Shown here one piece after another: positions 27,119 through 43,505 of a DNA stretch of 55,738 bases (the first letter of the stretch is position 1; the number at the start of each line of letters is the position of its first letter). The stretch is from a virus. Its lineage: Duplodnaviria > Caudoviricetes. Under the pieces are notes generated by a model, which did not search any database, had not been told where the DNA came from, and saw only the letters and a list, made by a program, of their open reading frames with translations. A program made the translations under genes and the position numbers. The DNA lies in the IMG/VR virus record IMGVR_UViG_3300037243_000147, positions 1-55,738 of that record. The stretch is one strand, 5' to 3'.

Positions 27119-27129
27119 GTATATAATCT

Positions 27130-27192
27130 AGGACGAGCTGCACGCCTTTAGGGAGGCAAACATGAACCAGTGCAAACTGGAAACTCGTCCTG
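27130..27192 (-). ncRNA. candidate cis-antisense three-way-junction RNA of HNH gene 27162
   Basis: GGACGAGU/GCUCGUCC closing stem, CCAGU/ACUGG hairpin, and a hairpin carrying the anti-SD. G-U pairs form only on this strand. Weak extended -10 (TGtTATAGG) upstream. Confidence 0.55.
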
Positions 27193-28202
27193 CACCTTCC
27201 TATAACACAACTCTGTCGTCCGTTGAAAGATTTCCAAACAATTACGACCTCTGCCCGTTATGTGGCGAAATTAAGGCCAAGGTGAGCGCTATGTGCCGCG
27301 CCTGCCGTTTTCCGCCCAGAGCGTCCATTCCACAGCCATCTGATCCAACAATCCGTCATCTACCTCTGACCCAAGGCTATTACGTTGTTGTGTCGGCTGA
27401 GGGTTATGAACGTGCATCTACACGTAAATGGCATGTACATATCATCAGGTGCAAGGACGGCAGCGTTAGAAACGTCTACGCAATAAGCAACATAGTGATA
27501 GACGGTCGTCGCACAACAATAAAACTGCACCGTTTTCTTATGGGAATTACCGATCCATTGATACAAATAGATCACGAAGACGGTGAAGGATTGACTTGCG
27601 TTCCCAGTAATATGCGTACCGCTACGAAGAGACAGAATAACTATAACAGCCGCAAGCGCTACAACAGTACTGCCCCTTTCAAGGGGATGACATTGAACGC
27701 CCGTGAACAGAAATATCGAGTTCAAATCTGGACGCCTAGTGGAAGGAAGTGCCTTGGCAGGTTTCCTCTAGATGCTGCTGAGGAGGCTGCTCGTTGCTAC
27801 GATTACTGGGCGGTCAAACTTCAGGGAGCTTTTGCTTGCACTAATGTAAAGCTGGGGCTATTACCTCCTCTTAGTGACGATGAGGCAGCGGCACAGGCAT
27901 GTAAGTGGGAGAATGAATATAAGCTCAACAGAAATAACTCCAGTGGCTATATGGGTGTTGCGTCGATTAAGTCTGGTCTGAGATGGAAAGCCTCGGCCAG
28001 ATTAGATGGCCGTCAGAGGCATCTCGGACTATATGACACAGCAAAAGAGGCAGCAAGGGTTCGGGATGCCGCAATTGTGTTGTCCGATGTGCATACTGTG
28101 CGTACTTGGCTGAATTTTCCCGATGAACCTCCAACGCCCGAAGAGGTAGCCAACGTTAAGAAGTATTTGGAACGTAAGAGGGGAAGTCACCGCAAGGTAT
28201 AG
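27162..28202 (+). CDS. Zn-ribbon + HNH + 2xAP2 homing endonuclease
   Basis: CPLCG...CRAC; LPLTQG; LHRFLMG...IDHEDG...SNMR; two AP2-like LGxF/Y...AA..D repeats. Confidence 0.88.
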   Translation: MNQCKLETRPAPSYNTTLSSVERFPNNYDLCPLCGEIKAKVSAMCRACRFPPRASIPQPSDPTIRHLPLTQGYYVVVSAEGYERASTRKWHVHIIRCKDGSVRNVYAISNIVIDGRRTTIKLHRFLMGITDPLIQIDHEDGEGLTCVPSNMRTATKRQNNYNSRKRYNSTAPFKGMTLNAREQKYRVQIWTPSGRKCLGRFPLDAAEEAARCYDYWAVKLQGAFACTNVKLGLLPPLSDDEAAAQACKWENEYKLNRNNSSGYMGVASIKSGLRWKASARLDGRQRHLGLYDTAKEAARVRDAAIVLSDVHTVRTWLNFPDEPPTPEEVANVKKYLERKRGSHRKV

Positions 28203-28226
28203 ACTGAGTAGCTAACCGACACTCAA

Positions 28227-28280
28227 GGCCAGAGACTTACTCCTACTCTCTGGCCCATTCCCATCCTTTTGTTTTATTTA
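28227..28280 (+). terminator. putative intrinsic terminator
   Basis: GGCCAGAGA/TCTCTGGCC hairpin with a T-rich tract about 10 nt downstream. Confidence 0.45.
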
Positions 28281-28408
28281 ACCCCCCACCTGTTGACTAG
28301 TCCATAATATGTCGTTCACGATATCAGACAGGGATAACCTCCCTGGTGAACTGGATGAAGATTTCTAGTCACCCACGTCTTGCGTAGCCGGGCGAAAAGG
28401 AGAAAGCC

Positions 28409-28498
28409 ATGTTTGAAACCTCGAAGATGGATGAGCGCGGTAAGCGCGGTAAAGGCAGACACAAAAAGAGGCATGGTGGCCGTAAGGCCAAGCGGTAA
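28409..28498 (+). CDS. very basic microprotein (29 aa)
   Basis: MFETSKMDERGKRGKGRHKKRHGGRKAKR, strong AAGGAG SD. Not in the ORF track. Confidence 0.75.
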   Translation: MFETSKMDERGKRGKGRHKKRHGGRKAKR

Positions 28499-28575
28499 CC
28501 CAAGTAGTTTCACACAAGGGATGAGCTAGTGCTTGTCCCTTTAACCTCATGTAATTTTACTGAGGAGTAATAGTT

Positions 28576-28800
28576 ATGGCAGGCGAAAAGAATAAAGAAG
28601 TTGGCAAGCATCCTCCGCTGAAGAGTACCGAAGAGTCGTTCGGTAGCCGCTGTGGAACTATCGCAATTGGCGGAGGCGAATTCATTGCCTTCGGCCATAA
28701 ACCGAATCCTGGTGTCTGGCCGACCAATGTAGTCTCAGTGGATGTCAAGACAGGTTATCCGCGTGACTTCGACAAGGGCAAGAAAGCCCCCAAGGTATAG
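28576..28800 (+). CDS. hypothetical head-module protein
   Basis: GAGGAG SD. Position in the head module. Confidence 0.7.
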   Translation: MAGEKNKEVGKHPPLKSTEESFGSRCGTIAIGGGEFIAFGHKPNPGVWPTNVVSVDVKTGYPRDFDKGKKAPKV

Positions 28801-28806
28801 CTGGCA

Positions 28807-29208
28807 ATGGCCGACAATTCCAGTTCGGGCAGTAAATCGGGCAAGACCAAAGCCCCCAACTTCTACGAAGCAGCCGCGTCAATGCCGGGTGCAGCGGGTG
28901 GTGGGGCAGGCGGTGACAAAGGTGGATCAGCCGCCTCCATGTCCGAGAAGGTCTCCAACGTCCAAGCTCTCCTCGAAGTATTCAAGAAAATGGACAAGTT
29001 GGAAACCGATCCCGATGCCAAGGGGATGATACAGAAGATGAGTGACTTGGCCCAGGAATATATCAACAAGATTCAGAAGCCAGCCACAGGTGCAGCTCCA
29101 GCTACCGGCGCGGGTGCATCACCTCCACCACCGCCAGCAACTCCGGATATGGGAGCAACTCCACCTGCTGTCGGTGGAAGTATGGGTATGGGCGGGGCAG
29201 CGGCTTAA
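28807..29208 (+). CDS. Gly/Pro/Ala-rich head-module protein
   Basis: ORF track. Located between portal and scaffold. Confidence 0.7.
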   Translation: MADNSSSGSKSGKTKAPNFYEAAASMPGAAGGGAGGDKGGSAASMSEKVSNVQALLEVFKKMDKLETDPDAKGMIQKMSDLAQEYINKIQKPATGAAPATGAGASPPPPPATPDMGATPPAVGGSMGMGGAAA

Positions 29209-29237
29209 CTCATAACTAGAGAGAGGGAATAGGGATT

Positions 29238-30026
29238 ATGGCGACAATTCTTGAACAGCTCCGTGAACTAGCCGATGCAGACGGTCAGAAATACATTGAC
29301 TACCTGATCTCCCAGAAACCTGACCTGACTACTCACGCTGTCGAACAGGACGCGATATATTCAATTTACGCCGGGACCACTGTACCTGAAGTAGTAACTC
29401 CAGTGACACCTGTCACACCAGTTACCACTACTCCAGTCACGCCCGTTGCCGCTGCCGCGCCAGTCGCGCACACGCCGACAGTTCCGAACTCTGCTGCTAC
29501 CCCATCCCTCGATGTAGCCAAGCTCCTAGCCGATATGAGCGCCAAAATAGACAAGTCCCTGGCCGACTTAGACTCACGCTACGTGACCGCCGCCAAACTC
29601 CCCGAGTACCGCACCGAGATGACCGGCATAGCTATCAAAGCCGCCGATGACTACGCGACAGTGAGAGAGAATCATCGCGCTGAATTTGGCGAGCCCATCA
29701 ACCGCGATGAGTTCGAGAAATTTGTCACCGACCAGTCTACAGCCGGGGCTAAGTTCAAGAATATGTCTGAAGCCCACGACCGCTACGTAACCGAGAAGAG
29801 AGTGGCGGCACAGATTAAGAAGGGGATAGATGAGGGATTGAAACAGAAAGCCTCAGCTCAGAATGTCCCCGGCCAGACTCAGAGTGTGGCAATGTCCCCG
29901 GCACAACAGGTGATAGCCAAGGCTCGATCCACTAATGAAGGTGAAAGTGGTAGCCACGCGCTCGCCGCTGCACTGCGTCTCGCCGATCTGGTAAGATCAC
30001 GCGAGAACGCAGGGGTGGTGAATTAA
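29238..30026 (+). CDS. putative capsid scaffolding protein
   Basis: Low-complexity T/P/A linker, helical C-terminus, upstream of the major capsid gene. Confidence 0.6.
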   Translation: MATILEQLRELADADGQKYIDYLISQKPDLTTHAVEQDAIYSIYAGTTVPEVVTPVTPVTPVTTTPVTPVAAAAPVAHTPTVPNSAATPSLDVAKLLADMSAKIDKSLADLDSRYVTAAKLPEYRTEMTGIAIKAADDYATVRENHRAEFGEPINRDEFEKFVTDQSTAGAKFKNMSEAHDRYVTEKRVAAQIKKGIDEGLKQKASAQNVPGQTQSVAMSPAQQVIAKARSTNEGESGSHALAAALRLADLVRSRENAGVVN

Positions 30027-30550
30027 TGTCCAAGGCTAAAGTATCACAGGAAGAATTCGAGGAGAAACTAGCTGCCGCATCCGAGATGGATTGGGCACGT
30101 CTAGCCGCCTTCACAGACGGGGAAGGTTCAATTCTCATCGCTAAGGGCAAGAGGGTAGCCAAAGGTTGTGACCATCCGACTTACGTGCTTACCTTGATCG
30201 TCTCTAACACAGATTTGCGACTGATTGATTGGCTTGTACAGACCTTCGGAGGGGCCTCTTACTTCAGTCACGGTATGGCACAGCGTAAGTGGAGTGTCCG
30301 TACCTGTTACTCGTGGCGAATGTTTGACCAACGTGCCGCAACTATCCTAGAGCACTGTCTGCCGGACTTCATCATCAAAGGTCAGCAGGCTAGTACAGGG
30401 GTAGCGTTCCGCAGACTAAAGTGGTGTCGCGGAAACAAGGTTTCAAAAAAGGATTTAGAGGTTAGAGAAAAGTTTCGCAATGAGATGTGCTCTCTGAACG
30501 CGCCCCCATTGGACAAAAATGATCCTTGGGACCCTTCGAGAGTGCAGTAG
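30026..30550 (+). CDS. LAGLIDADG homing endonuclease (single motif)
   Basis: WARLAAFTDGEGSI...VSNTDLRLIDWLVQTFGG...LPDFIIKGQQA. Confidence 0.9.
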   Translation: MSKAKVSQEEFEEKLAAASEMDWARLAAFTDGEGSILIAKGKRVAKGCDHPTYVLTLIVSNTDLRLIDWLVQTFGGASYFSHGMAQRKWSVRTCYSWRMFDQRAATILEHCLPDFIIKGQQASTGVAFRRLKWCRGNKVSKKDLEVREKFRNEMCSLNAPPLDKNDPWDPSRVQ

Positions 30551-30606
30551 TCGAATTCACTGTGCTATGTCGCTGTCAAGGCAACTAGCCGAAACGGAGA
30601 ACTCAC

Positions 30607-31584
30607 GTGGGCTTATTATATTCCGACATCAGCGCGGTGACGACAAATTACATCTCTAACTCCTTTATTGACAACTACTTCCGGATTTCACCTACATTCG
30701 TAAAGGTTTGGAAATCCGGCTCTATGGCCAAACCATTTCCAGGTGGCAACCAAATCCAGGTTCCCTTTCAATACGCACCTCTCAAAGCCGGACCCTTTGC
30801 CCCCGGTGGCACCTTCGACATCTCCTACGTCGAAACCCAGACCGCGATGACCTTCAATGTGAAGTATTACTATGCGAATGTGACGGTACAGGGCACCCAG
30901 CTCCCACTCAACCGTGGCGAAGCTGCCGTAATGAATTTCCTAGAGCCCAAGGTAGTCAACGCCGAACAAGCCTTAGCTCAGTCCATGATTACTGGCTATT
31001 TCGCGGACGGCCAGGGCACGGTAACCCCACTCATAGCCTTGGACGGAATTCTGGCTGGCTATGACGACGGCACCAACTACCCGAGTTACGGCGGGATAAC
31101 TCGATCTGCAATCGGTGTCGGTGCATCCACTGGCATCAACGGATACTTTTTCAATAATGGCGGCGTCAACTGGCCATTCTCACTCCAGCAGCTCCAAGTC
31201 GCATTCGGCCAGGCTACCTTCGGCCCCGACCAGCCTAACTTCATCGCTACCACCCAGTCCCTGTATAACTCGTTCTGGGCGAAGATGTTACCCATGCAAC
31301 GGACCTATGAGATTGACCCTGACTTGCAAGGCGCTGGATTCAGGTCATTCAAGTTCAATGGCATGAGTGTAGTAGTGGATCAGTATTGTCCGGCGGGGAA
31401 TATATTCGGTATGAACACTGACTACATCGATAGCTATGTCAGTGATGATCCGAGGTTCGGATTCGGATTCACCGGGTTCAAGGAGTTGCCAAATTCAGTG
31501 GATATGGCCGGTCAAACTCTATTCGGTGGCAATGTAGTGGTTACCGCTCCCCGGTTGGGATTTGTGATGGCTTTGGCCCAATAG
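30607..31584 (+). CDS. major capsid protein (HK97 fold)
   Basis: 325 aa. GGNQIQVPFQY, LDGI, PNFIATTQSLYN, GFRSFKFNGMSVVVDQYCP patterns. Gene order. Confidence 0.85.
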   Translation: MGLLYSDISAVTTNYISNSFIDNYFRISPTFVKVWKSGSMAKPFPGGNQIQVPFQYAPLKAGPFAPGGTFDISYVETQTAMTFNVKYYYANVTVQGTQLPLNRGEAAVMNFLEPKVVNAEQALAQSMITGYFADGQGTVTPLIALDGILAGYDDGTNYPSYGGITRSAIGVGASTGINGYFFNNGGVNWPFSLQQLQVAFGQATFGPDQPNFIATTQSLYNSFWAKMLPMQRTYEIDPDLQGAGFRSFKFNGMSVVVDQYCPAGNIFGMNTDYIDSYVSDDPRFGFGFTGFKELPNSVDMAGQTLFGGNVVVTAPRLGFVMALAQ

Positions 31585-31611
31585 TTGTAAGTGATTGAAG
31601 GAGAACAAGTT

Positions 31612-32256
31612 ATGGCATTGACTACCGAATTCCCAATGATCTCTTCCAATCTCAAGGTTGGGCTGGGCATGTACGGCACCGCCGACCCCTACAACGCGAC
31701 CCTTCAGAATAACGGCGCTCTCAATCCCCTTGGCGCACTATACTTCGCGCCATCCCCCTCGCAGGGCGCAGGCTCTATCCTGCCCACCACCCCCGGTTAC
31801 GCATCGGGTCTGTGGTGTCGCTATGTAAAATATCTCTCGACCGCCAACCCCGCTACTGTCGTCGGCCCTGCCCCCGTCTATTACACCGACGAAACCTTTA
31901 CCACTGTCTCTGGAGTATTCTCGGAAGGTAATCCCGCCGCCACCGGATCATCGCAGTCTATCGCTGGATGGCTATTACCGAATAGCGGTGTGGTGGCAGG
32001 TGTCGGACTCGGCACTACCCTATTCACCAACACTATCCTCAACAATAACGGACTCGGCTCCTATGTCTGGATCGGACTCCTCGGATTCATCCCCAAGGCA
32101 TTTGTCGGTGTACTCACTCAAGGCACTCTAGTCTCAGGAGTGGCCGGTAATTGGGTAACCGCCGCTGCCGTCGCCACCACCCAGACTGCGGGCAAAATAG
32201 TCGGTGTGACCGCTACCACTGTATCCGATATCGTAGCTCTCATCGACCCGTTCTAA
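31612..32256 (+). CDS. putative capsid decoration/cement protein
   Basis: Follows the MCP. RYVKY...G.YVWI pattern. AAGGAG SD. Confidence 0.55.
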   Translation: MALTTEFPMISSNLKVGLGMYGTADPYNATLQNNGALNPLGALYFAPSPSQGAGSILPTTPGYASGLWCRYVKYLSTANPATVVGPAPVYYTDETFTTVSGVFSEGNPAATGSSQSIAGWLLPNSGVVAGVGLGTTLFTNTILNNNGLGSYVWIGLLGFIPKAFVGVLTQGTLVSGVAGNWVTAAAVATTQTAGKIVGVTATTVSDIVALIDPF

Positions 32257-32287
32257 TCTGACATGAGAAAGGCGAGGTAAATTTGAT

Positions 32288-32653
32288 ATGGCGCTGTTAA
32301 CTCCTTACCCTTCTATGCCAGAGAGTCGAGCCTACTACGGCATCGGCCAGATGTCTGACACTATGCTCATCCAGCCCGGAGTCTCGGACTACACCACTGG
32401 CGGCTACATACTCTCCGCGATCAATCTCCGTATGACGCACATGATCGGGGCGTATGTGGTGGGGTGTAATGCCGCCGCCAACCTCTATAATGTGTTCATT
32501 CTATTTCCGGCCACCTCGTTTGGCGTTGGCCTCGCCCCCACCCCCGCTGTCTCTATTGCGTTCCAGATATTCGTGGAATCCACATCCACAGAGGTAGCAA
32601 ATGGATTCAATCTGACTGGGACGAATTGGCTGTTGGCGGTACACGGATATTGA
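32288..32653 (+). CDS. virion structural protein
   Basis: DYTTGG...EVANGFNLT...AVHGY. GAGGT SD. Confidence 0.6.
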   Translation: MALLTPYPSMPESRAYYGIGQMSDTMLIQPGVSDYTTGGYILSAINLRMTHMIGAYVVGCNAAANLYNVFILFPATSFGVGLAPTPAVSIAFQIFVESTSTEVANGFNLTGTNWLLAVHGY

Positions 32654-32694
32654 TAGCGGATGGAATGCTAAAGGGGGTAGACTAGAATTACTAT

Positions 32695-33723
32695 ATGGCT
32701 ACCCCCAACCAAATCGGTCCTCTTGCCGGCGTCCAGCCATATACCAACTCTCAAAATTTTGGACAGCTTTTGGGAGAACTTAGTTCCTACGTGACGCATT
32801 GCCCAATCCCAGTTTTGCAAAATATATTGAATGACTCTGTTCGTGTCTACTATGATCGGAGGACGTGGCTAGGACTCCTCCAGAAGGGTCAGATCATTTC
32901 ACCGGGGTATTACTCAAAGGGCACAGTACAACTCACTCAAGGCTCACCCACAGTCATTGGCACTAATACTAACTGGACTCTAAATCTCGGCGGCGCTCCG
33001 CTCATAGGTCAATCGCTACGGGTAGGATTCACCTCTCCCATTTACAACGTGATCGCGGCCTCACTCTTGACTAACCCTCAGACTCTTACTCTTGAACTCC
33101 CATGGGGCAATCAGTCCGTCAATTCAACATCTTACTATCTGACTCAGTTCTATTATCCAGTCAGAGGTTGTAAGTTCATATACAGTCTCAAGAACTTACA
33201 ATTGTGTTATCGAATATGGACTAATGTCAGTCAGGCGTTGATCGAAAATTACGATCCATCCCGTTTGCAAATGGCGTTTCCACGCATCTTTGCTCAGACA
33301 CAGCCTACTGCTTCAGGCGATTGGCAGGGGGAACTCTGGCCAGTTCCCAACTACAGCCAGAGCTTCCCAATGTTGTTCTACGCGCAGCCCCCTAATCTCG
33401 TCAACGACAACGACCAGCTCCCCGCCTACACTCGTGCCGACGTTATCAAATCTCTCGCATTATCGGAAGCTCTCCTGTATCACCCCAAGATGAATCCGAA
33501 TTACAGTGAAGGCATGTGTATGACTATCTCCGCACAGAAGCGTAAAGAGTTCGAGGTCGAAGTAGAGCACGCGGCCCAGAATGATGAAGCGCTATTCCGA
33601 AACGATATCGTAACTCAATGGGAGCAGTTTCCGTTGATAGGGTTAGAGGGTGGGAATATGTTGTCAGGCGGGGCCTATAGCGCGGCATGGAGTCCAGTGA
33701 CGGACAGTTGGAGCGATTACTAG
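32695..33723 (+). CDS. head-tail adaptor-like protein with beta insertion
   Basis: Helical N-terminus (ILNDSVR...W), YSKGTVQLTQGSPTVIG insertion, ELWPVPN motif. Confidence 0.6.
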   Translation: MATPNQIGPLAGVQPYTNSQNFGQLLGELSSYVTHCPIPVLQNILNDSVRVYYDRRTWLGLLQKGQIISPGYYSKGTVQLTQGSPTVIGTNTNWTLNLGGAPLIGQSLRVGFTSPIYNVIAASLLTNPQTLTLELPWGNQSVNSTSYYLTQFYYPVRGCKFIYSLKNLQLCYRIWTNVSQALIENYDPSRLQMAFPRIFAQTQPTASGDWQGELWPVPNYSQSFPMLFYAQPPNLVNDNDQLPAYTRADVIKSLALSEALLYHPKMNPNYSEGMCMTISAQKRKEFEVEVEHAAQNDEALFRNDIVTQWEQFPLIGLEGGNMLSGGAYSAAWSPVTDSWSDY

Positions 33724-34404
33724 CTAATCTTCGGGGATGACATTAAGACACGCATACTCGCCGTGGTATTGCAACAGAGCAACATTAACGGCACGAGCGG
33801 CTTCTTTGATGTCATCGAATCCGCCGAGGTATATCCGCTGCCCGTTGTATCTGACAGTCGCAATCCATTTTCCTGATTCATTGTGGCGATAAACGTCTGT
33901 ATATCCCGATGTATTGTTCGACTGAAGGCCGCTATTACAGGAATTCTGGCGATTATTACACACTCTGAGATTGGATTTTTGGTTGTTGAGTGGATTTTTG
34001 TCGATATGATCCACTATTCGCGAATCAGACGGTGTGAGGTTCATAAGGTCTCTGTGCAGGGATGAATTCTCTGTTCTTGAGAATCGTCTTGTTGCGTAGA
34101 ATTTTCCGGTCTTATCGTCTTTGGTGGCAGAGTAGTGATGTTTTGAGGCATGCTCGTATTCACAGGCATCCACAATTGCCAGAATTCCATTAGTCAGTCC
34201 TACTTGCCGACAGGGATTTCCGTTAACAAAAACTGTGTCAGATGTTACTTGAGTACGCTTTCCTTTGTAGCTGCACTCCCTACAGCGTTCCGAGATGATT
34301 CTTTTGCCTTTACCACAGTCGGGGCAGTAGTCGTAATAGTTGTTTTTTATGCGAAAGGTAGTAGAATGTGGCTGTGGCTGTGCAACTTGTTTGCTCAAGG
34401 GCAT
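33724..34404 (-). CDS. Zn-ribbon + HNH + AP2 homing endonuclease
   Basis: CPDCG...CREC; LHRDLM...VDHIDKNPLNNQKSNLR; YLGGFDDIKEAA...HGEYA. Confidence 0.92.
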   Translation of the reverse strand: MPLSKQVAQPQPHSTTFRIKNNYYDYCPDCGKGKRIISERCRECSYKGKRTQVTSDTVFVNGNPCRQVGLTNGILAIVDACEYEHASKHHYSATKDDKTGKFYATRRFSRTENSSLHRDLMNLTPSDSRIVDHIDKNPLNNQKSNLRVCNNRQNSCNSGLQSNNTSGYTDVYRHNESGKWIATVRYNGQRIYLGGFDDIKEAARAVNVALLQYHGEYACLNVIPED

Positions 34405-34441
34405 GACCTCATCTCAGAAATGAGTTGTGCGGCATGGCCAC
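34374..34441 (+). ncRNA. candidate cis-antisense three-way-junction RNA of HNH gene 34404
   Basis: P1 GUGGCUGUGC/GCAUGGCCAC, P2 CUUG/CAAG, P3 GCAUGAC/GUUGUGC with an inner stem. Begins 7 nt after TAGAAT (34362-34367). Confidence 0.65.
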
Positions 34442-34478
34442 ACGTCAGCCATTATAGCACCATTGCGGGGGTAATAGC

Positions 34479-34922
34479 TTGTCGGTCTGCTCTAAATGCG
34501 GTCACGAAGTTTCCCGAACCGTCACCGTATTCAGGTTCGACGGTGACAGGGAATTGTGCCGCGTCTGCCTCCCCTCTCCTCATGTTGACAAGTCCAAGAA
34601 TCTGTTTCAGAACTTTACAATGGACCACGTTAAGGATGAGCGTGGACAAAAGGTGACAGTCAACTCGCTTGCCGAGCTAAGGGCAGCGGAGAAGCGTTAT
34701 AACGTAGCATTAGCGTGCATGAGTGATAGCGACGGCAGTGCAAGCGAGCCGCCACAACACGATCCCCACGCTGGCGATCTGTCGTACTCATACGACAAGA
34801 AATTCAATCGTGACCCTGCCGCTTACTCCCAGTCTGAGATAGACAAAGCTAAGTCTGACGTGGGCGCTGTACAAGACAGGTCACAGACATTAGTGGATCG
34901 CCCAAACCCGTTGAATAGGTAA
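34479..34922 (+). CDS. Zn-ribbon (FmdB-like) phage protein
   Basis: CSKCG...CRVC. Confidence 0.6.
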   Translation: MSVCSKCGHEVSRTVTVFRFDGDRELCRVCLPSPHVDKSKNLFQNFTMDHVKDERGQKVTVNSLAELRAAEKRYNVALACMSDSDGSASEPPQHDPHAGDLSYSYDKKFNRDPAAYSQSEIDKAKSDVGAVQDRSQTLVDRPNPLNR

Positions 34923-34941
34923 CTGAATAGGTAGGTGTGTT

Positions 34942-35073
34942 ATGCCCAGACCCGATGATGACATGATGATGACGCCGAAAGAAACCCGAGCCGAGAAGAA
35001 ACGAATGGGGATGAAGGGTAAGCGTAAAGGTAAGCGTGGCAAGGGCAAACGCAAGGTATCGTCAAGGAGATAA
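34942..35073 (+). CDS. very basic microprotein (43 aa)
   Basis: MPRPDDDMMMTPKETRAEKKRMGMKGKRKGKRGKGKRKVSSRR, AGGTG SD. Not in the ORF track. Confidence 0.7.
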   Translation: MPRPDDDMMMTPKETRAEKKRMGMKGKRKGKRGKGKRKVSSRR

Positions 35074-35078
35074 TAGTC

Positions 35079-35507: not shown

Positions 35508-35519
35508 GGGAGATATCCA

Positions 35520-36137
35520 GTGGCATTCTTGACCTTCGCTGCCCTAACAATTCAGAGTGCAACTGTCCCACAACCGTTAACAGGATCGTGGATTAGCGCG
35601 GGCCTCAGCGCACCCACCGACGTTCCCATTACTATTACTCTCGGTACTGCATCTGTAACCGGCAGTGACGCTTCAAATCTGTTCCGTGCGGGTCAGGAGG
35701 CGTGGCTAATCAACGTGGATGGCAGTGGTGCTGAATCCGTAATAGTCGGCGCAGTGTCAGCTAACACTCTCACTCTCAATCCCAAACACCTCTCTACCCG
35801 TGATGCAGCTATATCCCCAGTGACTCAATATCCACATGCTAGTGGCGCGTTCGGGACCGGCACATTTATAGCCCCACACCTCCAAGTCAACTCGGCATTT
35901 GTGCAGGGTATCGGTGGTGCGGGCGGTGCTTACCTCTACATTGGTAATGCATATAACATGACCGCCAACTATAGACTAATCGCTGCCATCTCTAAAGTCG
36001 CATCTGGAGTCCAGCCTTACTTCTGGAACTCAACTGAATCCAGCCCCGGAAATCCCTTTATCTCGTCAGAGCTATGGATACTAGGCGGCGCAGGACTCAC
36101 TACGGATTCGTACAGCCCGAGTTTTAATGTCGCTTGA
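35520..36137 (+). CDS. virion structural protein
   Basis: S/T/G/A-rich beta composition. Late module. Confidence 0.65.
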   Translation: MAFLTFAALTIQSATVPQPLTGSWISAGLSAPTDVPITITLGTASVTGSDASNLFRAGQEAWLINVDGSGAESVIVGAVSANTLTLNPKHLSTRDAAISPVTQYPHASGAFGTGTFIAPHLQVNSAFVQGIGGAGGAYLYIGNAYNMTANYRLIAAISKVASGVQPYFWNSTESSPGNPFISSELWILGGAGLTTDSYSPSFNVA

Positions 36138-36141
36138 TTTG

Positions 36142-36831
36142 CTATTCGGCTCTTGAGAACTCTCCGTGGTATTTCAGTAACTCACGGCATCGGACTTGAT
36201 AGGCTTCTAGGGGTGTTGCAAAAGCTCCGAGCCAGATGTTTTTACCATTCACGTAAATCGTTGTCTCCCACGGTTTTTTTACGCCGGGACCATAGGAACT
36301 AATATGGCGCACGCCCTTGTATCCAGAGGTGCTATCTTTTCTGATGCGCCTGTTATGAGCGTTTTGTACAGACGTGGCAATTCTGAGATTTTCTCTCGTG
36401 TTGTTAAGTGTCTGCTCGCACTTGATGTGGTCCCCTACACGTTTATCTCCGGGTTCGAGTCCGAGAATAGCGCGGTGCATCTTGATATTTACTGCCTTTC
36501 CGCTGGTATAGTCCGTGCGGGTAGCATAGAAGCTGCCCATAGTCTTATTCCAAGTTGCAGACCATTTCCACTGTATTAGCCACTCGTAATCGCCTACACT
36601 AACGATTGTGAATTGACCTTTTGTAAGAGGGATATAGCGAATCTCGGGGTTATCAGGCTGCTGGATATAGGGTCGGTATCTGCTCTGGCATGATCTACAC
36701 AGAGCGCTTCTCTTGAATTTCAACTCTCCGCAGTTCGGGCAAAGATTATAATGCCCCGGCCATTTAGCTGCTGATTCCTTGATTGTAGGGTAAGATGTTA
36801 CAGGGCGGGTTTTCAGGTCACTCTGATTCAT
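36142..36831 (-). CDS. Zn-ribbon + HNH + AP2 homing endonuclease
   Basis: CPNCG...CRSC; IPLTKG; MHRAILG...GDHIK...LNNTRENLR; WLGAFAT...HGEF. Confidence 0.92.
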   Translation of the reverse strand: MNQSDLKTRPVTSYPTIKESAAKWPGHYNLCPNCGELKFKRSALCRSCQSRYRPYIQQPDNPEIRYIPLTKGQFTIVSVGDYEWLIQWKWSATWNKTMGSFYATRTDYTSGKAVNIKMHRAILGLEPGDKRVGDHIKCEQTLNNTRENLRIATSVQNAHNRRIRKDSTSGYKGVRHISSYGPGVKKPWETTIYVNGKNIWLGAFATPLEAYQVRCRELLKYHGEFSRAE

Positions 36832-36865
36832 GTTTCGTCCCCTCCACGGGACGTACAGCTCGCTT
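36803..36865 (+). ncRNA. candidate cis-antisense three-way-junction RNA of HNH gene 36831
   Basis: P1 GGGCGGGUU/AGCUCGCUU (four G-U pairs), P2 UCAG/CUGA, P3 CGUCCC-CUCCAC-GGGACG. Begins 7 nt after TAAGAT (36791-36796). Confidence 0.6.
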
Positions 36866-36892
36866 GCATTATAACACGCGGGGAGTGGAGAC

Positions 36893-39547
36893 GTGAGACG
36901 ATTATTGCTTAGAACGATACTATTGCTCTTGCTATCGTCTCTACCTCTATCGGCCCAGAGTCATACATTTTGTGCGTCCGATTCCAATTGTACCTATACC
37001 GGCAACAACACTTTCACAGGTAGCAATACCTTTACCGGCCCCACTACCTTTACCTCCCCCCTCGTCGCCCCCTTATGCTCCTACACTGTCGCTACCCTCC
37101 CCACCAACTTCCCCGCTAACGCTGTCTGTCTCGCTACCGACGCTAACCCTACCTGTACTATTGGCGGCGGCACTATCACTCCCGCTATCTGCCAATATAA
37201 CGGGTCAATATGGACGACATTAGCCATGGGTGGCGGGGGCGGAGTATGGGGATCGATCACAGGCACTCTATCCTCACAAACCGACTTGCAATCTGCGCTC
37301 AACGCCAAGGCTAATATCAACGCCAACACTACCGGCACATCAGGGGGGTTGGCAGGGAATCCGTCAATATCGGTTACAAATGTTACGGCATCAGGCACTA
37401 TCGCGGTGGGCACAACGTTGCCGAGCGGCGCGCCAACGGGAACCGTGGCGGCTAACGCAGTGTGTAATTGGAATGGACCAATCGATGTGAAGGCATGTTT
37501 CGGCGCAAAAGGCGACGGCACTACCATCGATAGTACGGCGATTCAAAACGCCTTTGATTACGCCGACGCTGGCTCGATTCACCCCACGGTGTACTTTCCA
37601 TCCGGGGTGTATATCGCAGAGGGTTTAGACCTGCCATGCGGCCCCTATATTGAAGGCTCAACGGAAGGCAATGGCGTGATACTCAAGCTGCCACCAAGCA
37701 CAGCAGCGAGCTATTTGGCGCAGACTGCGCACACGGACGGGAGTTGCGAGTACACCTACATCGAGCACATGCGATTCGACGGCAATGTGCAGAACGGGTC
37801 AAGTGTCTCAATAGCAGTAGTGAGCCTACAGAGCAGCGTATTTAATCAATCGGAGTTCAGCAATTCCCTGGTAACGAACTATACTGGCGCACCGGGTATT
37901 CTCATTGGGCCCGGGACAGCAGGCGACGGCGCAGGCGCGCTGATTTTAGAAAATGATTGGGTGCAGACAGGAGGCGGCGCAAACGCTCCGGGCATCGTTA
38001 TCAGTAGTTTTCTGGGCAGCAATGAAGGCTACGTCTCGGGCATTCGGCTCCATCATGTACAGATCGAAGGCACCGGGGCGCAGCCTTGTTTGACCTATCA
38101 ATCGAAGAACCCGACCAAGATGCGCAATAACACGGTAGATGACCTATGGTGTGGAGGCTTTACCGGCGATGGCGTTTACGTCAACGGTCTAACCTTCTCC
38201 CAGTTTAGCGGAGTGTATTTCTACGCCGGCGGTAGTCCATCCACCGCCAACAGCGGCATTCACATCGTCACACCAACACTCGGAAGTTCAACCTACGGCA
38301 ATAACTTCTTTGGCGTGTGGACTTCAAACGCGCCTTACCCGGCGATCCAAGACGACATCAATTCCTACACATCGCCTTATGCGGTAGGTATGTACCTCCA
38401 GCAATCCGCGATCAACATGGAGAGCAAGATTCTCGGCACCTTTAAGACAGCAGCCGGAACACCTTATGCGGTGCAGTGCTTTGATTCGACCGGGACGGCG
38501 GTTGCCTGCGCGGGATTGTCGGTGTCTAATCCCAACCCCGGATTGCTTATCGCGGCGAATGGTCAGGATGGCCTCCTCACGCTGAAAGACACGCGGGCGG
38601 CGGCGCAAGGTGTTGGCGGTGGATGGAGCGGCGTAGGTATCTACGATGTTGGTGGGGATTACACAGGCTTCGGTGGCTTCAGCGCGGTGAAATTTAATTC
38701 AACGCTAGGCGATTCGCAGGGTATGGCGCTGATGCAAAACGACTCCTCGGGTGTGCTGCGCAATCAGTGGTTCGTCAACAATTCCGGCGCGGGATTGATG
38801 AACAACAGCAACACGGTACTCGGCTATATCGACACAAGCGGCATCTATCACGGCCCTGCAACATCGCTCTCGTTAGGCGCGAACGGTTGCATCCCTTATC
38901 AGACCAGTGCTACTACCACGGCCTGTCTCTCTGGCAACACGGCAGCAACCGATAATGTGCTGGTTAGTCATGGCACAGGATCAGCCGCGCAAGCACCGAC
39001 GCTTACCAACGCACCAGCTATTAGCCTAGCCAATGCGACCACGCCTGCACCTACATCGAGCGCCTTGGCTTCCGCGCCGTCTGGATGCTCAGCGGGTTCT
39101 GCTCCAACGGGTGTAGCGGCAAATGGCAACGCCTCTGGTTGCACAGCGTACGATCCCCTTGGTACTGCAACTACGGCAATTTCGGGAACGCGGGCGACTT
39201 GGGCAGCGACCAACCCGCTCAGTTCACTCGGGACAAACTGCTGGGGAGCCTGGACACCATCGGTAAATATCACGATCACTCGCATCAGCGCATCGTCGGG
39301 CAATGGGGTGTTCACAACCTGTTCGACCTCATGGCCAAACGTGGACATTGCGCAGATTGGCGGCAGTGTGTTGACCTCCCACTATTCATGGACGAGCGCC
39401 AGCGGGGTCGTAGATTCCGGCGTGATTCCAGGCGGCGTTGCAATCACCGCAGGCACGCCGCTCCAATTCTGCACCACGGCGGGCAGCGGTTGCTCCGGTG
39501 GCTCGATGGGCTACATAGATTTCACGATGGAATACATTCCATGGTAG
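36893..39547 (+). CDS. tailspike-like beta-helix (pectate-lyase-like) protein with N-terminal signal peptide
   Basis: DVKACFGAKGDGTTIDSTAIQNAFD...VYFPSGVY cap motif; WGSITGTLSSQTDLQSALNAKA; MRRLLLRTILLLLLSSLPLSA-Q signal. Confidence 0.8.
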   Translation: MRRLLLRTILLLLLSSLPLSAQSHTFCASDSNCTYTGNNTFTGSNTFTGPTTFTSPLVAPLCSYTVATLPTNFPANAVCLATDANPTCTIGGGTITPAICQYNGSIWTTLAMGGGGGVWGSITGTLSSQTDLQSALNAKANINANTTGTSGGLAGNPSISVTNVTASGTIAVGTTLPSGAPTGTVAANAVCNWNGPIDVKACFGAKGDGTTIDSTAIQNAFDYADAGSIHPTVYFPSGVYIAEGLDLPCGPYIEGSTEGNGVILKLPPSTAASYLAQTAHTDGSCEYTYIEHMRFDGNVQNGSSVSIAVVSLQSSVFNQSEFSNSLVTNYTGAPGILIGPGTAGDGAGALILENDWVQTGGGANAPGIVISSFLGSNEGYVSGIRLHHVQIEGTGAQPCLTYQSKNPTKMRNNTVDDLWCGGFTGDGVYVNGLTFSQFSGVYFYAGGSPSTANSGIHIVTPTLGSSTYGNNFFGVWTSNAPYPAIQDDINSYTSPYAVGMYLQQSAINMESKILGTFKTAAGTPYAVQCFDSTGTAVACAGLSVSNPNPGLLIAANGQDGLLTLKDTRAAAQGVGGGWSGVGIYDVGGDYTGFGGFSAVKFNSTLGDSQGMALMQNDSSGVLRNQWFVNNSGAGLMNNSNTVLGYIDTSGIYHGPATSLSLGANGCIPYQTSATTTACLSGNTAATDNVLVSHGTGSAAQAPTLTNAPAISLANATTPAPTSSALASAPSGCSAGSAPTGVAANGNASGCTAYDPLGTATTAISGTRATWAATNPLSSLGTNCWGAWTPSVNITITRISASSGNGVFTTCSTSWPNVDIAQIGGSVLTSHYSWTSASGVVDSGVIPGGVAITAGTPLQFCTTAGSGCSGGSMGYIDFTMEYIPW

Positions 39548-39608
39548 GCAACGTCGGCATTAGCACTACATTGCCTGAGCTTGACCGTAATTGTTAAGGA
39601 TTATAGAT

Positions 39609-40691
39609 ATGTCATCGCCATCCATCCCGCCCATACCCTCACCGCTATACTTACTTGACCAATCACTACTACCGTGGCTGATCACCACCGGTAATGCGGG
39701 CCAGATTATCGCTACTCTTGTCGTTACCACTCCATCCACCTACCCCCTCTACCCTCCAGTCCCGTATGTATTACTAACCGACACCGCCACCTCTCTAGTC
39801 TGGAAATTGACCATCATCTCCACCGGAATATATCCGAATCTGTTAACCAATCTCCAAATCACTCTGTCATCGGGAGTCAATGTACCATCCGGTATATTAG
39901 CCCCGTCCCCGAACCTTACCAATTACCTCATTACCGTTACCAACTCTACTCTCACTACCACTCTCGCCCCATTCTTCCCCGGCAATAATAGATTGGGTCA
40001 GACTACAATTAGCACTCTAGCCTTTCGAGTCCAGCAGCGTTTAGAGGAAGAGGGGACGACAGCGGGCGAGTTCTGGTCGGTACAGTATGAGATTTATACA
40101 GCATTAGTCGAGGCCATCTCCGACCTCATGCTATTGGTGGGACGACCTACCCAGTCAGTCCAAATCCCATACTCATTTACTTTGAATACCCCATGGCAAA
40201 CAATGCCGACAGGTGTGTTTCTGATTACAAATATCTGGGGGCCGCAGGGTAATATCAGGAAAGTGGATTTGCACAGTATGGATTACGTAATGTCATCCTG
40301 GGGGCCGGGGTGGGAGTCGGACAGTAGTGTGAATGGCCCGCAGCGATGGTTCCCAATCGGACTCACCACCTTCGCCGTCCATCCCGCGCCATCCGTATCC
40401 CAAGTTGTAGCTATCGACGGGATTGCATTCCCCACCACCTCTACATGGCCGTACAGCGGCTCAGAGACAGTTCCATTCTCAGATGAGTTCTTTGTCGCGT
40501 TGGAAGAATATAGCTGCTCCTGTTTGCGTTTGAAAGAGGCGGGCAGCGAATTTCAAGATTCAATGTCCCTCTACAACTCCTATTTACAACTCGCTCGCCG
40601 CATGACTGAAATCCAGGACCGCCGTGATCCACTCATATTCTCACCTGTACTTGGCGGGACTGCCGGACTGCACTCACTCACCAAAAGGTAG
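39609..40691 (+). CDS. adaptor/tail tubular A-like structural protein
   Basis: RVQQRLEE...FWS..EIYTAL.EA; VHPAP; ALEEY...LKE pattern after an N-terminal beta extension. Confidence 0.6.
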   Translation: MSSPSIPPIPSPLYLLDQSLLPWLITTGNAGQIIATLVVTTPSTYPLYPPVPYVLLTDTATSLVWKLTIISTGIYPNLLTNLQITLSSGVNVPSGILAPSPNLTNYLITVTNSTLTTTLAPFFPGNNRLGQTTISTLAFRVQQRLEEEGTTAGEFWSVQYEIYTALVEAISDLMLLVGRPTQSVQIPYSFTLNTPWQTMPTGVFLITNIWGPQGNIRKVDLHSMDYVMSSWGPGWESDSSVNGPQRWFPIGLTTFAVHPAPSVSQVVAIDGIAFPTTSTWPYSGSETVPFSDEFFVALEEYSCSCLRLKEAGSEFQDSMSLYNSYLQLARRMTEIQDRRDPLIFSPVLGGTAGLHSLTKR

Positions 40692-40696
40692 CTGTC

Positions 40697-40876
40697 ATGC
40701 CGTGGGGTGTATGGGAGGGTCGTGATAGTCCCGATGGCAATATCCATGTCGCTCCCTGTCGTAAAGACGGTACGCCTGTCCCACCACACTCAATCTCTGT
40801 AGACTGCCCCTGTCTTCCCGATTCCCGCGAAGGCTTGGATGGCGTAACGATAGTAGTTCATAACCAGATTCAGTGA
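40697..40876 (+). CDS. small His/Cys metal-binding protein
   Basis: Hand-translated ...IHVAP...PH...DCPCLP...VVHN. Fills the gap. Confidence 0.55.
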   Translation: MPWGVWEGRDSPDGNIHVAPCRKDGTPVPPHSISVDCPCLPDSREGLDGVTIVVHNQIQ

Positions 40877-40942
40877 CTTACACATTGCGATTATCCCCAA
40901 GTAGAGGTAAACTTTTCAATCAGAAAGGATCACTCATCTACC

Positions 40943-41407
40943 GTGGCCACCACATTCTCCAACAAGTCCGCACCCATTACCCCCGCTAGTCAGCGCCGTG
41001 CCGATCCCAATTCCATTAACCTTGCCGACTACAAAGGCGATATCCGTGTATGCCCATTCTGTAAACCACTCGACCGACTCGGGGGCAGAGCATGTGGTCA
41101 GTGTATGTCCAGAGGGTATGTGGCAGTGTGTTTGAATTGTGATGGGACCGGACTCCACACCGCCAAATCAGTCTGGGATGGGAAATCGGATCACACATCC
41201 ACATGTAACCTGTGCGGCGGGCGTGGGCTATTTCCAGCCAGTGAGCGTGAGTATGTGGCTGCAGGTGGAGAGTTGGATGGGGAGGATGCGGATACTGGTA
41301 ATGACGGCTCAACTATTACTGCTGTCGCTACCTCGCCAATGCCCGATATCATCTCGCCGATGAAGAATACCCAGATTACCAGACCGAAACCTGATGGTGG
41401 CAAATAA
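40943..41407 (+). CDS. DnaJ-type zinc-finger (CxxCxGxG repeat) protein
   Basis: CPFC, CGQCMSRG, CLNCDGTG, CNLCGGRG. Confidence 0.75.
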   Translation: MATTFSNKSAPITPASQRRADPNSINLADYKGDIRVCPFCKPLDRLGGRACGQCMSRGYVAVCLNCDGTGLHTAKSVWDGKSDHTSTCNLCGGRGLFPASEREYVAAGGELDGEDADTGNDGSTITAVATSPMPDIISPMKNTQITRPKPDGGK

Positions 41408-41428
41408 GGGTAGAGAGGGCGGTGCAGA

Positions 41429-42601
41429 GTGGCCAATCCCGTCGGCAACGCCAATTTCCGCACAGTCAACAGCCTGATGTGTGAGATTTCAGTTTTACAC
41501 TTATGTCAACCCATTGTAATCCAACCTCTCGCCTCTCCCTCTATCGCCGCCACCCCCGCTACCCTTACCATTACCTCCACTCTCAACTTGTCAGGCTCCC
41601 CCACAGTGCCCTCGCTAACCTTCCTCGGTACACAGTTGGTCATCATGGACGGCAATAATACCGAGGTTATCACTGTCATTAGTGTTATTAGTCCGACTCA
41701 ATTTACCGCTAACACTCTATATCCACATCCAGCAGGGGTATTAGTGGAGGGTGCGCCATTCCCATCACAAGCTCAAACTGATCCACTACTCACACAGAAT
41801 GAAGTCCTCGGCTACATAGCTCGCGCCCAAAACGATCTACTCGTTGAATGTCCGTGTATCATGCAATTGTTCCAGCAAAATATTCTACCCGGTGCCATCT
41901 ATAACTCAGTGCCGCCAACCTCCATCGAATTGAATCGGCTGGCATCGTCAGCGCCAGTGATAGCCATAACCTCACTGACTCGCACCTCCAATGTTGTGAC
42001 CGCTATCTCGATATCTCCACACGGATATATACCCAATCAGCCATTCTCTATCCTCACATCCCCCGCCGACCCCACCTTCATTGGAGCCTTCGCTGTCGCT
42101 ACCATTATCAGCCCCACTGAATTTACCTATACACAGTATGCTGCCAATGCCACTACCTCTGTATTGGGGATTACAGCGGGGCTATGGACTAGAGCCTATG
42201 AGGTCAGTCAGGAAGAGTTGTCATGTCAGAATCCTTCATGGAGGTCGAGCCATATTACCTCGATAAAATCCTTTTACGAAGATCGCACGGGGCTATACGG
42301 ATTTGGAGTCTCGGGTATCCCAGCGATAGGCTTCCCGATTGAATTGTTATGCGCGGTCAGAGATACAGATACATTGGCATTGACCGACCATTTTCTTTGT
42401 CCGGACATAGCCCTCCACTACCTGAAATACCGCGCCTTGTCTTATGTCTGGTCAAAAGATGGTGAAATGCGTGACCCAGTTCGCCAACGCTATGCCGACG
42501 ATAGATACGCTCGCGGGATCAAAACACTCCGAAGGTGGATGGAGTGGGCAGGCGTTCAAAGCGCTATGTCTGGGGCTGACACCATGGGAGCCTCAAAGTG
42601 A
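41429..42601 (+). CDS. adaptor-like structural protein with inserted beta domains
   Basis: LTQNEVLGYIARAQND...LKYRALSYVWSKDGE. Internal ITSLTRTSNVVT...HG...FTY domain. Confidence 0.6.
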   Translation: MANPVGNANFRTVNSLMCEISVLHLCQPIVIQPLASPSIAATPATLTITSTLNLSGSPTVPSLTFLGTQLVIMDGNNTEVITVISVISPTQFTANTLYPHPAGVLVEGAPFPSQAQTDPLLTQNEVLGYIARAQNDLLVECPCIMQLFQQNILPGAIYNSVPPTSIELNRLASSAPVIAITSLTRTSNVVTAISISPHGYIPNQPFSILTSPADPTFIGAFAVATIISPTEFTYTQYAANATTSVLGITAGLWTRAYEVSQEELSCQNPSWRSSHITSIKSFYEDRTGLYGFGVSGIPAIGFPIELLCAVRDTDTLALTDHFLCPDIALHYLKYRALSYVWSKDGEMRDPVRQRYADDRYARGIKTLRRWMEWAGVQSAMSGADTMGASK

Positions 42602-42603
42602 CA

Positions 42604-43431
42604 CTACTCGTCTGGAAAATTCAAAACAGCAAACTTTCCGTAGCGAATCTTAGCGGCCTTATCGTAGGCCCTCGCCGCTTCCTCTTCAGTGTTAAAGGTT
42701 CCCAAGTAAATTTTCGCAATCATGGCTCGACACGTTCCACAGGAGTTAATAACTGTGCCCGTGTATTTTGCCCCGCTCTTCCTTTTTCTGGGGGCATGAT
42801 TGGCTGTATTTTCTCGGTACGTTGCAGGTCTAAGATTCGATTCCCGGTTGTCAAGAGGATTTCGATTCTTGTGATCTCCCACCATCCCTTTGGGAACAAC
42901 TATGATGAAATCGTGCATAGCCAAGGACCGTCCTACTTTGCTGCCGAAGGAGGCTGTGGTCAGTCTCCATGCTCCGTACTCGTCCAGGCACGCGTGCCAA
43001 GTGATTTTAGAGAGACGGGCATAATTCTTTGCGTCAACAATGCCGTACTGTCCTTGAGTTGCTGGAATATAGCGGCAGGTATCATCTCCCAAGATAAACT
43101 CTTCATTACGCTCAGGAGGCTTTTCGAGTTTCTTAAAACACGCCCAACATATCTGATTGCGTCTCGATTTCCATTCGCCACAGGCGCAGAGATCGTAGTC
43201 GCGATGATGCTTGGGGTGAAGTTTTCCGTCTGTTGCATACTTTTGTCTTCGATCCTCTTTGTAGCAGACCCAGCAAAACTCAGACGTTTTTCGTTTCCAT
43301 GCCCCGCATCCGCAGCGGTCAAAGCGCCACGGGTATTTGAGAATAGTTTCTTCGAGAACGGGATTGTGATTACTGCTAGAATGGTCGAAGGGCGGTTCGA
43401 CACCAAGCACCAACTTGGGCATGATCATCAC
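42604..43431 (-). CDS. 2xZn-ribbon + HNH + AP2 homing endonuclease
   Basis: Two CxCG.WK...CWxC repeats; MHDFI...GDHKNRNPLDNRESNLR; YLGTFNTEEEAARAYD...GKFAVLNFP. Confidence 0.92.
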   Translation of the reverse strand: MMIMPKLVLGVEPPFDHSSSNHNPVLEETILKYPWRFDRCGCGAWKRKTSEFCWVCYKEDRRQKYATDGKLHPKHHRDYDLCACGEWKSRRNQICWACFKKLEKPPERNEEFILGDDTCRYIPATQGQYGIVDAKNYARLSKITWHACLDEYGAWRLTTASFGSKVGRSLAMHDFIIVVPKGMVGDHKNRNPLDNRESNLRPATYRENTANHAPRKRKSGAKYTGTVINSCGTCRAMIAKIYLGTFNTEEEAARAYDKAAKIRYGKFAVLNFPDE

Positions 43432-43466
43432 CTTGCACGTGAGATTGTGCGGTCGGGCCGCACTTC
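43387..43466 (+). ncRNA. candidate cis-antisense three-way-junction RNA of HNH gene 43431
   Basis: P1 GAAG-GCGGUUCGAC/GUCGGGCCGC-CUUC, P2 CCAAG/CUUGG, P3 GCAUGAUC/GAUUGUGC + UCAC/GUGA. Extended -10 TGcTAGAAT at 43374-43382. Confidence 0.65.
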
Positions 43467-43505
43467 TGTATTGTATCAGGTACCTGTGTGGGGGAGGGGC
43501 TAAAA

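Follow-up and report, generated by a model that had tools for sequence, protein, structure and literature searches.

The viral contig IMGVR_UViG_3300037243_000147 raises the question of why four genes for HNH-AP2 proteins should each begin inside a small RNA-like fold that is bracketed by two -10 boxes facing one another. We analyzed the whole stretch of 55,738 nucleotides (nt), called the window here. It is a viral contig of 55.7 kb with an estimated completeness of 58%, and its portal, capsid, and tail genes lie nearly all on the plus strand. An initial annotation had proposed that each of the four genes, h1 to h4, carries a built-in structured antisense RNA between convergent promoters. Based on the evidence given below, we consider it probable that the segment is a portable module in which a cis-antisense RNA and convergent promoters silence HNH-AP2 homing-endonuclease cassettes.

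The four genes are paralogues with a pairwise amino acid identity of 30–34%. Each product has a CxxC...CxxC ribbon at the N-terminus, an HNH motif, and a C-terminus that is AP2-like. With Pfam, HNH_3 is above the cut-off for h2 and h4, AP2 is below the cut-off for h1, h2, and h4, and h3 gives weak zinc-ribbon matches only. The gene h1 (27162–28202, plus strand, 346 amino acids) runs in the same direction as its neighbors. The other three are on the minus strand, opposite to their neighbors: h2 (33724–34404, 226 amino acids), h3 (36142–36831, 229 amino acids), and h4 (42604–43422, 272 amino acids), which has a double Zn ribbon. For h4, a start at GTG 43431 had been annotated, and ATG 43422 is the more likely start codon.

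The proposed three-way junction is found in all four copies, which fold alike over 63–80 nt on the strand antisense to the nuclease gene. In each of them, a closing stem P1 joins the start of the leader with codons ~7–11, a hairpin P2 covers codons 2–6, and a hairpin P3 lies over the Shine-Dalgarno (SD) sequence. By this geometry, the fold overlaps with the SD sequence and the start codon in all four copies and in every match of the covariance models described below. The h1 element (27129–27192, minus strand) spans the SD sequence (27151–27156), the ATG (27162–27164), and codons 2–10. The h2 element (34373–34442, plus strand) lies over the SD sequence and the ATG at 34402–34404 and scores 85 bits with the first covariance model, R1. 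The h3 element (36803–36865, plus strand) is the weakest copy, with E values of 0.18–0.25 in the second model, R2, and its closing stem forms on the antisense strand only, through three G-U pairs. The h4 element occupies 43387–43466 on the plus strand (model core 43391–43462); it has an alternative 3′ hairpin at 43447–43463 followed by a T-rich tail, which was scored as terminator-like.

The fold z-scores of h1 to h4 are −4.41, −2.76, −2.68, and −4.74 on the antisense strand and −4.40, −0.95, −1.52, and −2.66 on the sense strand. When each antisense fold was set against 1200 genomic windows of equal length and G+C content, the fraction of windows that were as stable was 0, 0.003, 0.011, and 0, respectively (sense folds: 0.003, 0.14, 0.26, and 0.0175), a comparison that favors the sites as the element borders had been picked in the initial annotation. 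In a scan with fixed 70-nt windows in 5-nt steps, h4 is the only one of the four sites that ranks among the 25 best of the window. After G+C correction, the highest fold stability over 70 nt is found at 4146–4216 (both strands), 29941–29966 (plus), 10306–10311 (minus), 27961–27976 (plus), and 34496 (plus), none of them at the start of an HNH gene.

Promoter-like boxes flank these folds on both sides, as had been noticed initially. On the sense side, h1 has the -10 box TATAAT (27122–27127, plus strand), which is located 2 nt before the arm of the closing stem. The other three genes have extended -10 boxes on the minus strand, namely TGCTATAAT at 34451–34459 for h2, TGTTATAAT at 36868–36876 for h3, and TGATACAAT at 43470–43478 for h4. 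The pattern TGNTAYAAT occurs four times in the window in all, and three of these matches are the boxes 40–55 nt upstream of h2, h3, and h4. The opposing boxes are hidden in the early codons: TAGAAT within the codons His-Ser-Thr of h2 (34362–34367, plus strand), the -10-like TAAGAT in h3 (36791–36796, plus strand), and the extended box TGCTAGAAT in h4 (43374–43382, plus strand). The h1 box, TGTTATAGG (27199–27207, minus strand, with TATAGG at 27199–27204 after TGT), is the weakest of the four, as had been suspected. In all four copies, the reverse box is 4–6 nt away from the closing stem.

The reverse box is conserved beyond the window. With the capsid protein, 80 related contigs were collected, and 67 of these records were searched with an alignment of the four nucleases. 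HNH-AP2 matches were present in 18 of the 67 (4/17 and 14/50). Together with the four genes of the window, 27 genes from these capsid-related phage contigs make up a group of 31 HNH genes. The strict motif TGnTAnnnT is found on the antisense strand of codons 2–27 in 16 of the 31 genes and on the sense strand of the same stretch in none. It is located at +38 to +47 in eight genes and at exactly +19 in eight others. Given the frequency of the motif in the DNA of the group, the chance of finding it in one such stretch is 0.04, and the probability of 16 or more genes among 31 is ~8e-15 if the genes are treated as independent. Across the copies, the motif is 4–9 nt away from the closing stem. The encoded residues vary (HST, DSS, QYT, SLP, SVA, and others) while the motif stays constant, carried by third codon positions. 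When the model strand was inspected by eye upstream of the closing stem, TA was seen at the first two hexamer positions in 13/13 copies, the final T in 12/13, and TGn in 9/13, at a distance of 5–8 nt. As a side observation, the 31 open reading frames beyond nt 81 (19,938 nt) contain 22 antisense and 9 sense occurrences of TGNTANNNT, and the rate on the antisense strand is roughly double the background of the group.

At the other end of the fold, the complement of a sense -10 box lies 1–9 nt from the stem in every copy; the spacing is 1–3 nt in h1, h3, and a third sequence type described below, and 5–9 nt in the copies resembling h2 and h4. As -10 motifs thus flank the stem on both sides, the segment is bracketed by face-to-face candidate promoters with predicted starts at both ends of P1.

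Covariance models were used to examine how far the fold itself is kept. Model R1 was trained on the antisense strand of h2, h4, and a copy in the viral contig G001, which is syntenic with the window. Run with filters off over 28 new loci (99.6 kb), R1 returned seven further copies with E values from 9.5e-15 to 4.5e-4 and one weak copy, each of them sitting antisense across the 5′ end of an HNH gene; with default filters, it returned the training copies only. Within the window, h1 is the top match outside the training set (E = 0.11; 0.036–0.18 across searches), with a model trained on the other subfamily only. The h3 copy was not recovered by R1 at E values up to 10. Model R2 was run over 435 kb including ~75 unrelated HNH-AP2 loci, and its matches are confined to this phage group. 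With filters off, R2 reached in addition L210 (E = 0.078), h3 (E = 0.25), and L216 (E = 0.87). It also matches gp30 of Tunturi_2, a cultured Tunturiibacter phage (E = 2.9e-4; z −3.64 antisense and −2.31 sense). This copy, at L224 826–898 with TATCAT as its reverse box, is extra to the 31 genes. No further model matches were found in the window, in G001, or in the ~75 unrelated HNH-AP2 loci. All R1 and R2 matches lie at HNH genes, and the linkage of the module is exclusive to them.

In the model alignment of 15 sequences, 88.3% of the cells pair, compared with 64.7% in shuffled alignments (none of 500 shuffles reached the observed value) and 31–41% in slid controls. Changes on both sides were found in 22 of 25 pairs, and pairing reaches 97.8% in P1 and 100% in P2. 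An alignment of 11 sequences gave 89.9% versus 67.0% after shuffling. Since the alignments were fitted to the model, the pair counts are biased toward it; the slid and shuffled controls share this bias and are still far lower. The covariation predicted for two subfamilies thus holds, and a third type follows the same logic. Rfam 15 returned no match in the window at gathering score, none at the sites at E values up to 5, and none at eight related loci at E values up to 1. The element is hence a candidate for a new RNA family outside any Rfam family. The likeness to the C4 and Sar RNAs that had been suggested initially is one of mechanism only, as the Rfam scans exclude membership.

On which strand the fold works is indicated by its G-U pairs, which had been claimed to form on the antisense strand only. 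In the 11-sequence alignment, 206 cells are Watson–Crick pairs, 35 are G-U pairs that form on the antisense strand only, four are G-U pairs of the sense strand only, and 23 pair on neither strand. Most of the latter we ascribe to a slipped register in P3. Counted for P1 by itself, the numbers are 88, 18, 1, and 1, respectively. A U-G pair in the middle of P1 is retained in 8 of 11 copies while the neighboring pairs covary. The antisense z-score is at or below the sense z-score in 16 of 16 tested copies, and this measure is shuffle-based and does not depend on the model. Within these sequences, the G-U bias is strong, though not independent, evidence for the antisense strand.

The third type comprises ten genes with a different Cys-rich N-terminus ('MTPHE...'). 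In their leaders, the first bases after the sense -10 box (GGGGUGUC or similar) pair with AUGACACCCC, and this pairing closes a multi-branch fold with the SD sequence inside a hairpin. The reverse TGnTAnnnT is at +19 in 8/10 genes. An independent analysis with MAFFT and RNAalifold gave 15 consensus pairs, eight of them with double changes. The antisense z-scores range from −2.88 to −6.43 and are better than those of the sense strand in 10/10 genes. Counting all types, we judge the module to be present in 25 of the 31 group genes, ambiguous in one (L209), and absent from five (L190, L192, L202, L207, and L220).

For a reversed cassette, the strand of the fold allows two readings. Each of the ten h2/h4-like copies examined points against its neighbors, as does h3, and for this reason 'antisense to the nuclease' and 'on the main transcription strand' are inseparable in them. 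Co-oriented copies are therefore informative. L201, L206, and L208 each directly precede a terminase large-subunit gene on their own strand, L212 is followed by a repair-family gene, and L205 is preceded by a DnaB-like helicase gene. The reverse motif is kept in all five, and the antisense fold is the better one in all five. Two candidate explanations were rejected on these grounds: that the fold is a feature of the main-strand operon transcript, and that the reverse box is a simple replacement promoter for a downstream phage gene.

The module also behaves as a unit of its own. Positions −75 to +48 are the best conserved part in 10 of 10 gene pairs (53–84% identity versus 42–52% in the rest of the gene) and are above the flanks as well, which fits the portable unit of nuclease and RNA put forward in the initial annotation. 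The common leader and first codons (M..L..QV.EP) occur on L197, which has no Zn ribbon, and on copies with one or two ribbons; therefore, the conserved N-terminal residues double as arms of P2 and P1. A special tie of the RNA to the Zn ribbon, which had also been considered, is not supported, as the module is present on L197 and on the 'MTPHE' type.

From these features, we propose the following mechanism. The module would be a compact 5′ control region in which two promoters of the extended -10 type oppose each other, one in the sense direction and a reverse one embedded in nuclease codons 7–16, with the two -10 boxes ~80–100 base pairs (bp) apart. An RNA from the reverse promoter is predicted to begin precisely with the 5′ arm of P1. 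It would be complementary to the 5′ untranslated region of the nuclease mRNA, its SD sequence, the start codon, and the first codons, and it should adopt a stable fold with several branches (in the copies of the window, a three-way junction) with the anti-SD sequence in or beside an apical loop. Its 3′ end may lie near the sense promoter, which would probably give a length of ~65–85 nt. Two effects can be expected. Pairing with the nuclease mRNA could block ribosome binding and/or mark the duplex for cleavage, and the face-to-face promoters could interfere with each other. Together, these effects would keep a potentially harmful nuclease low or restrict it to a limited period. In the sense mRNA, the SD sequence and AUG are buried by the mirror-image fold, which probably contributes occlusion in cis.

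Several points weigh against this proposal. The reverse box lacks the final T in h1 and TGn in h3. The strict motif is missing in 15 of the 31 genes, and most of the module-bearing ones among them have TAnnnT only at that place, as judged by eye. In most of ten compared pairs, the first 16 codons do not exceed the whole gene in synonymous identity; the two closest pairs have 5/9 and 4/9 identical synonymous codons there compared with ~30–45% gene-wide. No canonical terminator follows the fold, and the tail is A/U-rich only as the complement of the sense -10 box. A model trained on the antisense strand leans toward G-U pairs on that strand, the copies share descent so that the P values overstate independence, and the bias in the RNAalifold consensus of the third type is mild (~9 versus 5 in a hand count). 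Finally, a significant fold is seen on the sense strand as well in several copies, such as h1 (z −4.40) and L222 (z −3.80).

This last point bears on the alternative that survives best, a role purely in cis through the sense mRNA, which is possible but in our estimate unlikely. Here, the leader would work as in phage T4: its fold buries the SD sequence and AUG, and the gene's own promoter is placed inside the 5′ arm, so that transcripts from this promoter can be translated whereas read-through transcripts cannot. In that case, the reverse box would be incidental or serve something else. Exactly such a sense-leader arrangement is described for I-TevI, I-TevII, I-TevIII, segB, and mobE of T4 (PMC2988022). 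In our copies, the sense folds likewise hide the SD sequence or AUG. With the sense -10 box 1–3 nt ahead of the arm of the closing stem, as in h1, h3, and the third type, a start ~7 nt further on would drop much of the arm. However, the h2/h4-like copies, with the box 5–9 nt from the stem, would retain the arm, and the sense closing stem is disrupted in h2 and h3. The preponderance of antisense G-U pairs (35 versus 4) and the antisense TGnTAnnnT at a fixed offset are also left unexplained by a leader acting on its own. The sense leader may act together with the antisense RNA.

Much less probable is that the reverse promoter transcribes a neighboring phage gene that the cassette has cut off from its operon, with the fold as the leader of that gene. 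T4 homing-endonuclease genes do contain embedded promoters for downstream genes (PMC2988022), and in the ten h2/h4-like copies and h3, which are reversed, the elements end shortly before the next main-strand gene (22–38 nt for the three copies of the window among them). Against this, at least five co-oriented copies keep a motif that points against the operon, h1 is co-oriented too, and in all copies the folded segment is the complement of the region where translation of the nuclease itself starts.

RNAs are known to associate with IscB-type HNH proteins, and one may ask whether the nuclease binds the present RNA in a similar way, as a cofactor or guide. The strict linkage to HNH genes is the sole point in favor of this idea, which we consider improbable. 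There is no Rfam match, and the RNA sequence is dictated by complementarity to the gene's own start. Moreover, the module is found with three different N-terminal domains and without the Zn ribbon, and the AP2 and HNH domains already cover DNA binding and cutting. Least probable of all is that the symmetry acts in the DNA as an autorepression operator, a cruciform, or a mimic of the homing site: the arms do flank the promoter region, and I-TevI represses its own promoter via an operator resembling its homing site (PMC2988022), but symmetry in DNA predicts no strand-biased G-U pattern, and arms 45–60 bp apart with two internal hairpins that covary independently are RNA-like.

The preferred reading, a cis-antisense RNA together with convergent promoters, has partial parallels among known systems. 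In symE-symR and other type I pairs, a reverse promoter lies in the toxin gene, the 5′ part of a short cis-antisense RNA covers the SD sequence, and the target is a harmful cutter of nucleic acid, which is mRNA in the case of SymE (PMC3874152). Our module differs in that the RNA family is unrelated, that the target is a phage homing endonuclease of 226–346 amino acids and not SymE or a small, usually hydrophobic peptide as in classical type I pairs, and that its transcript is a predicted one; an addiction or post-segregational function is not known for it. As the target is no small peptide and Rfam gave no match, the module is classed here by its proposed mode of action, similar to that of a type I or reverse-promoter silencer, and is assigned to no described family. 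EcoRI and Eco29kI are closer with respect to the target: a forward promoter of a DNA endonuclease gene faces a reverse promoter in the early coding region, and antisense RNA and convergence restrain the nuclease (PMC3874152, PMC3141266). In contrast to the mobile phage cassette described here, they are cellular restriction-modification systems, and the passages on them in the cited source describe no covarying structured RNA family (PMC3874152).

The T4 genes for I-TevI, segB, and mobE share with the module a promoter immediately upstream, an RNA structure over the ribosome binding site, and tightly limited expression, but as far as the cited text describes them, their hairpins are simple, lie on the sense strand, and have no antisense partner (PMC2988022). 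The module, in contrast, is multi-branched, folds better on the antisense strand, and has a conserved reverse promoter. Pairing of the SD sequence or AUG in the sense mRNA is thus common to both, while selection of the structure on the sense strand does not agree with the G-U counts or with the z-scores of the 16 tested copies. Our literature searches for convergent promoters or an antisense RNA at homing endonuclease genes of phages gave a single case, CfrI of cyanophage S-PM2, an antisense RNA opposite such a gene (PMC2984593). CfrI is ~225 nt long, joins the endonuclease gene to psbA, is of unknown function, and is not presented in the cited passage as a promoter-flanked fold over the start (PMC2984593). 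It is unrelated to the module in sequence and by Rfam.

The main text of the Tunturi phage paper does not contain the words 'HNH', 'endonuclease', or 'transcript'. Among phage RNAs, sar of P22 and C4 of P1 and P7 are small structured antisense RNAs that block the harmful gene ant at its ribosome binding site, sar with convergent promoters; the module has another target and no Rfam match. The HNH-associated HEARO RNA is likewise among the Rfam families that gave no match.

The relatives of the window show how the cassettes are placed. Proteins of G001 are 35–82% identical to those of the window. One such HNH gene is present in this contig; it occupies the h4 site and shares the fold (z −3.03 antisense and −2.18 sense). 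At the h2 site, G001 has a short intergenic spacer only; the h2 cassette, from stop codon to promoter, hence fills exactly the gap between two structural genes. At 33721–33726, the stop codon of the upstream plus-strand gene abuts the reversed stop codon of h2 as TAGCTA, and therefore the cassette has no 3′ untranslated region. Another insertion may be seen at 30026–30550 (plus strand), where an open reading frame of 174 amino acids lies between the scaffold-like and the capsid gene. It has no match in G001, in which the matches to its two neighbors are only ~125 nt apart, and no Pfam match. Its 'FTDGEGS' stretch resembles a LAGLIDADG motif, and the frame may encode another inserted, putative endonuclease.

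No close DNA relatives of the window were found among deposited phages. Among the best protein matches in these phages are HNH genes from phages of Tunturiibacter, whose hosts belong to the Acidobacteriota. When viral contigs were scanned with single proteins, the result was one distant locus for h3 and none for h2 or the portal protein, and the leader DNA pattern of h1 and h3 had no match in viral contigs. The alignment of the four proteins gave 80 HNH-AP2 loci, in which the match mostly begins at about residue 60 of the query, without the N-terminus; among the checked open reading frames of these loci, only L037 has the Zn-ribbon N-terminus. The proteins P0005 and P0022 also possess it. A metagenome scan returned nine loci, none with a usable N-terminal relative. 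A genome scan returned eight loci, from Planctomycetota and one Acidobacteriota assembly, with another Cys-rich N-terminus and no homologous leader.

Some further variants were observed among the nucleases. The C-terminus of h1 has an extra ~110 residues that resemble a second AP2-like repeat. The second N-terminal Zn ribbon of h4 is also present in L188 and L191. The HNH-AP2 genes L101–L107 from Planctomycetota assemblies have a different Cys-rich N-terminal domain ('C.NC.YA...PG.LREV...C.NFR'), which also occurs in P0040, P0050, and P0085. The gene L100 from the Acidobacteriota assembly has no Zn ribbon; TATAAT lies upstream of it, and a hairpin with the SD sequence in its loop lies right before the ATG. 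R2 gave no match at L100 with default filters. In the public protein collection, h3 appears only as a product of 132 amino acids from an internal Met (P0001). This case suggests that the N-terminus, and with it the module, may escape automatic gene calling.

Control of free-standing homing endonucleases is known mainly from T4, where it involves hairpins, promoter placement, and autorepression. The module would be a different, RNA-based solution inside the mobile cassette itself, with three sequence types in one lineage of soil phages, and it would connect homing endonucleases to the control logic of type I toxin-antitoxin and restriction-modification systems. The conservation of the first 10–15 nuclease codons would follow from their double use as RNA stem and promoter. 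A further step, which we put forward only tentatively, is that the homing endonuclease is a self-contained mobile unit similar to a type I toxin-antitoxin pair, with the nuclease as 'toxin', a short-lived antisense RNA, a bistable promoter switch, and a 5′ module that is swapped between nuclease bodies. If so, cutting would occur only in a set window, for example at entry or co-infection, and the RNA would be the first structured antisense-RNA family that travels with phage homing endonucleases. The single cultured representative of the lineage, Tunturi_2, infects Acidobacteriota, and with its host Tunturiibacter psychrotolerans it offers a cultured pair in which the module can be tested. A nuclease-silencing part of ~150 bp would also be useful for engineering.

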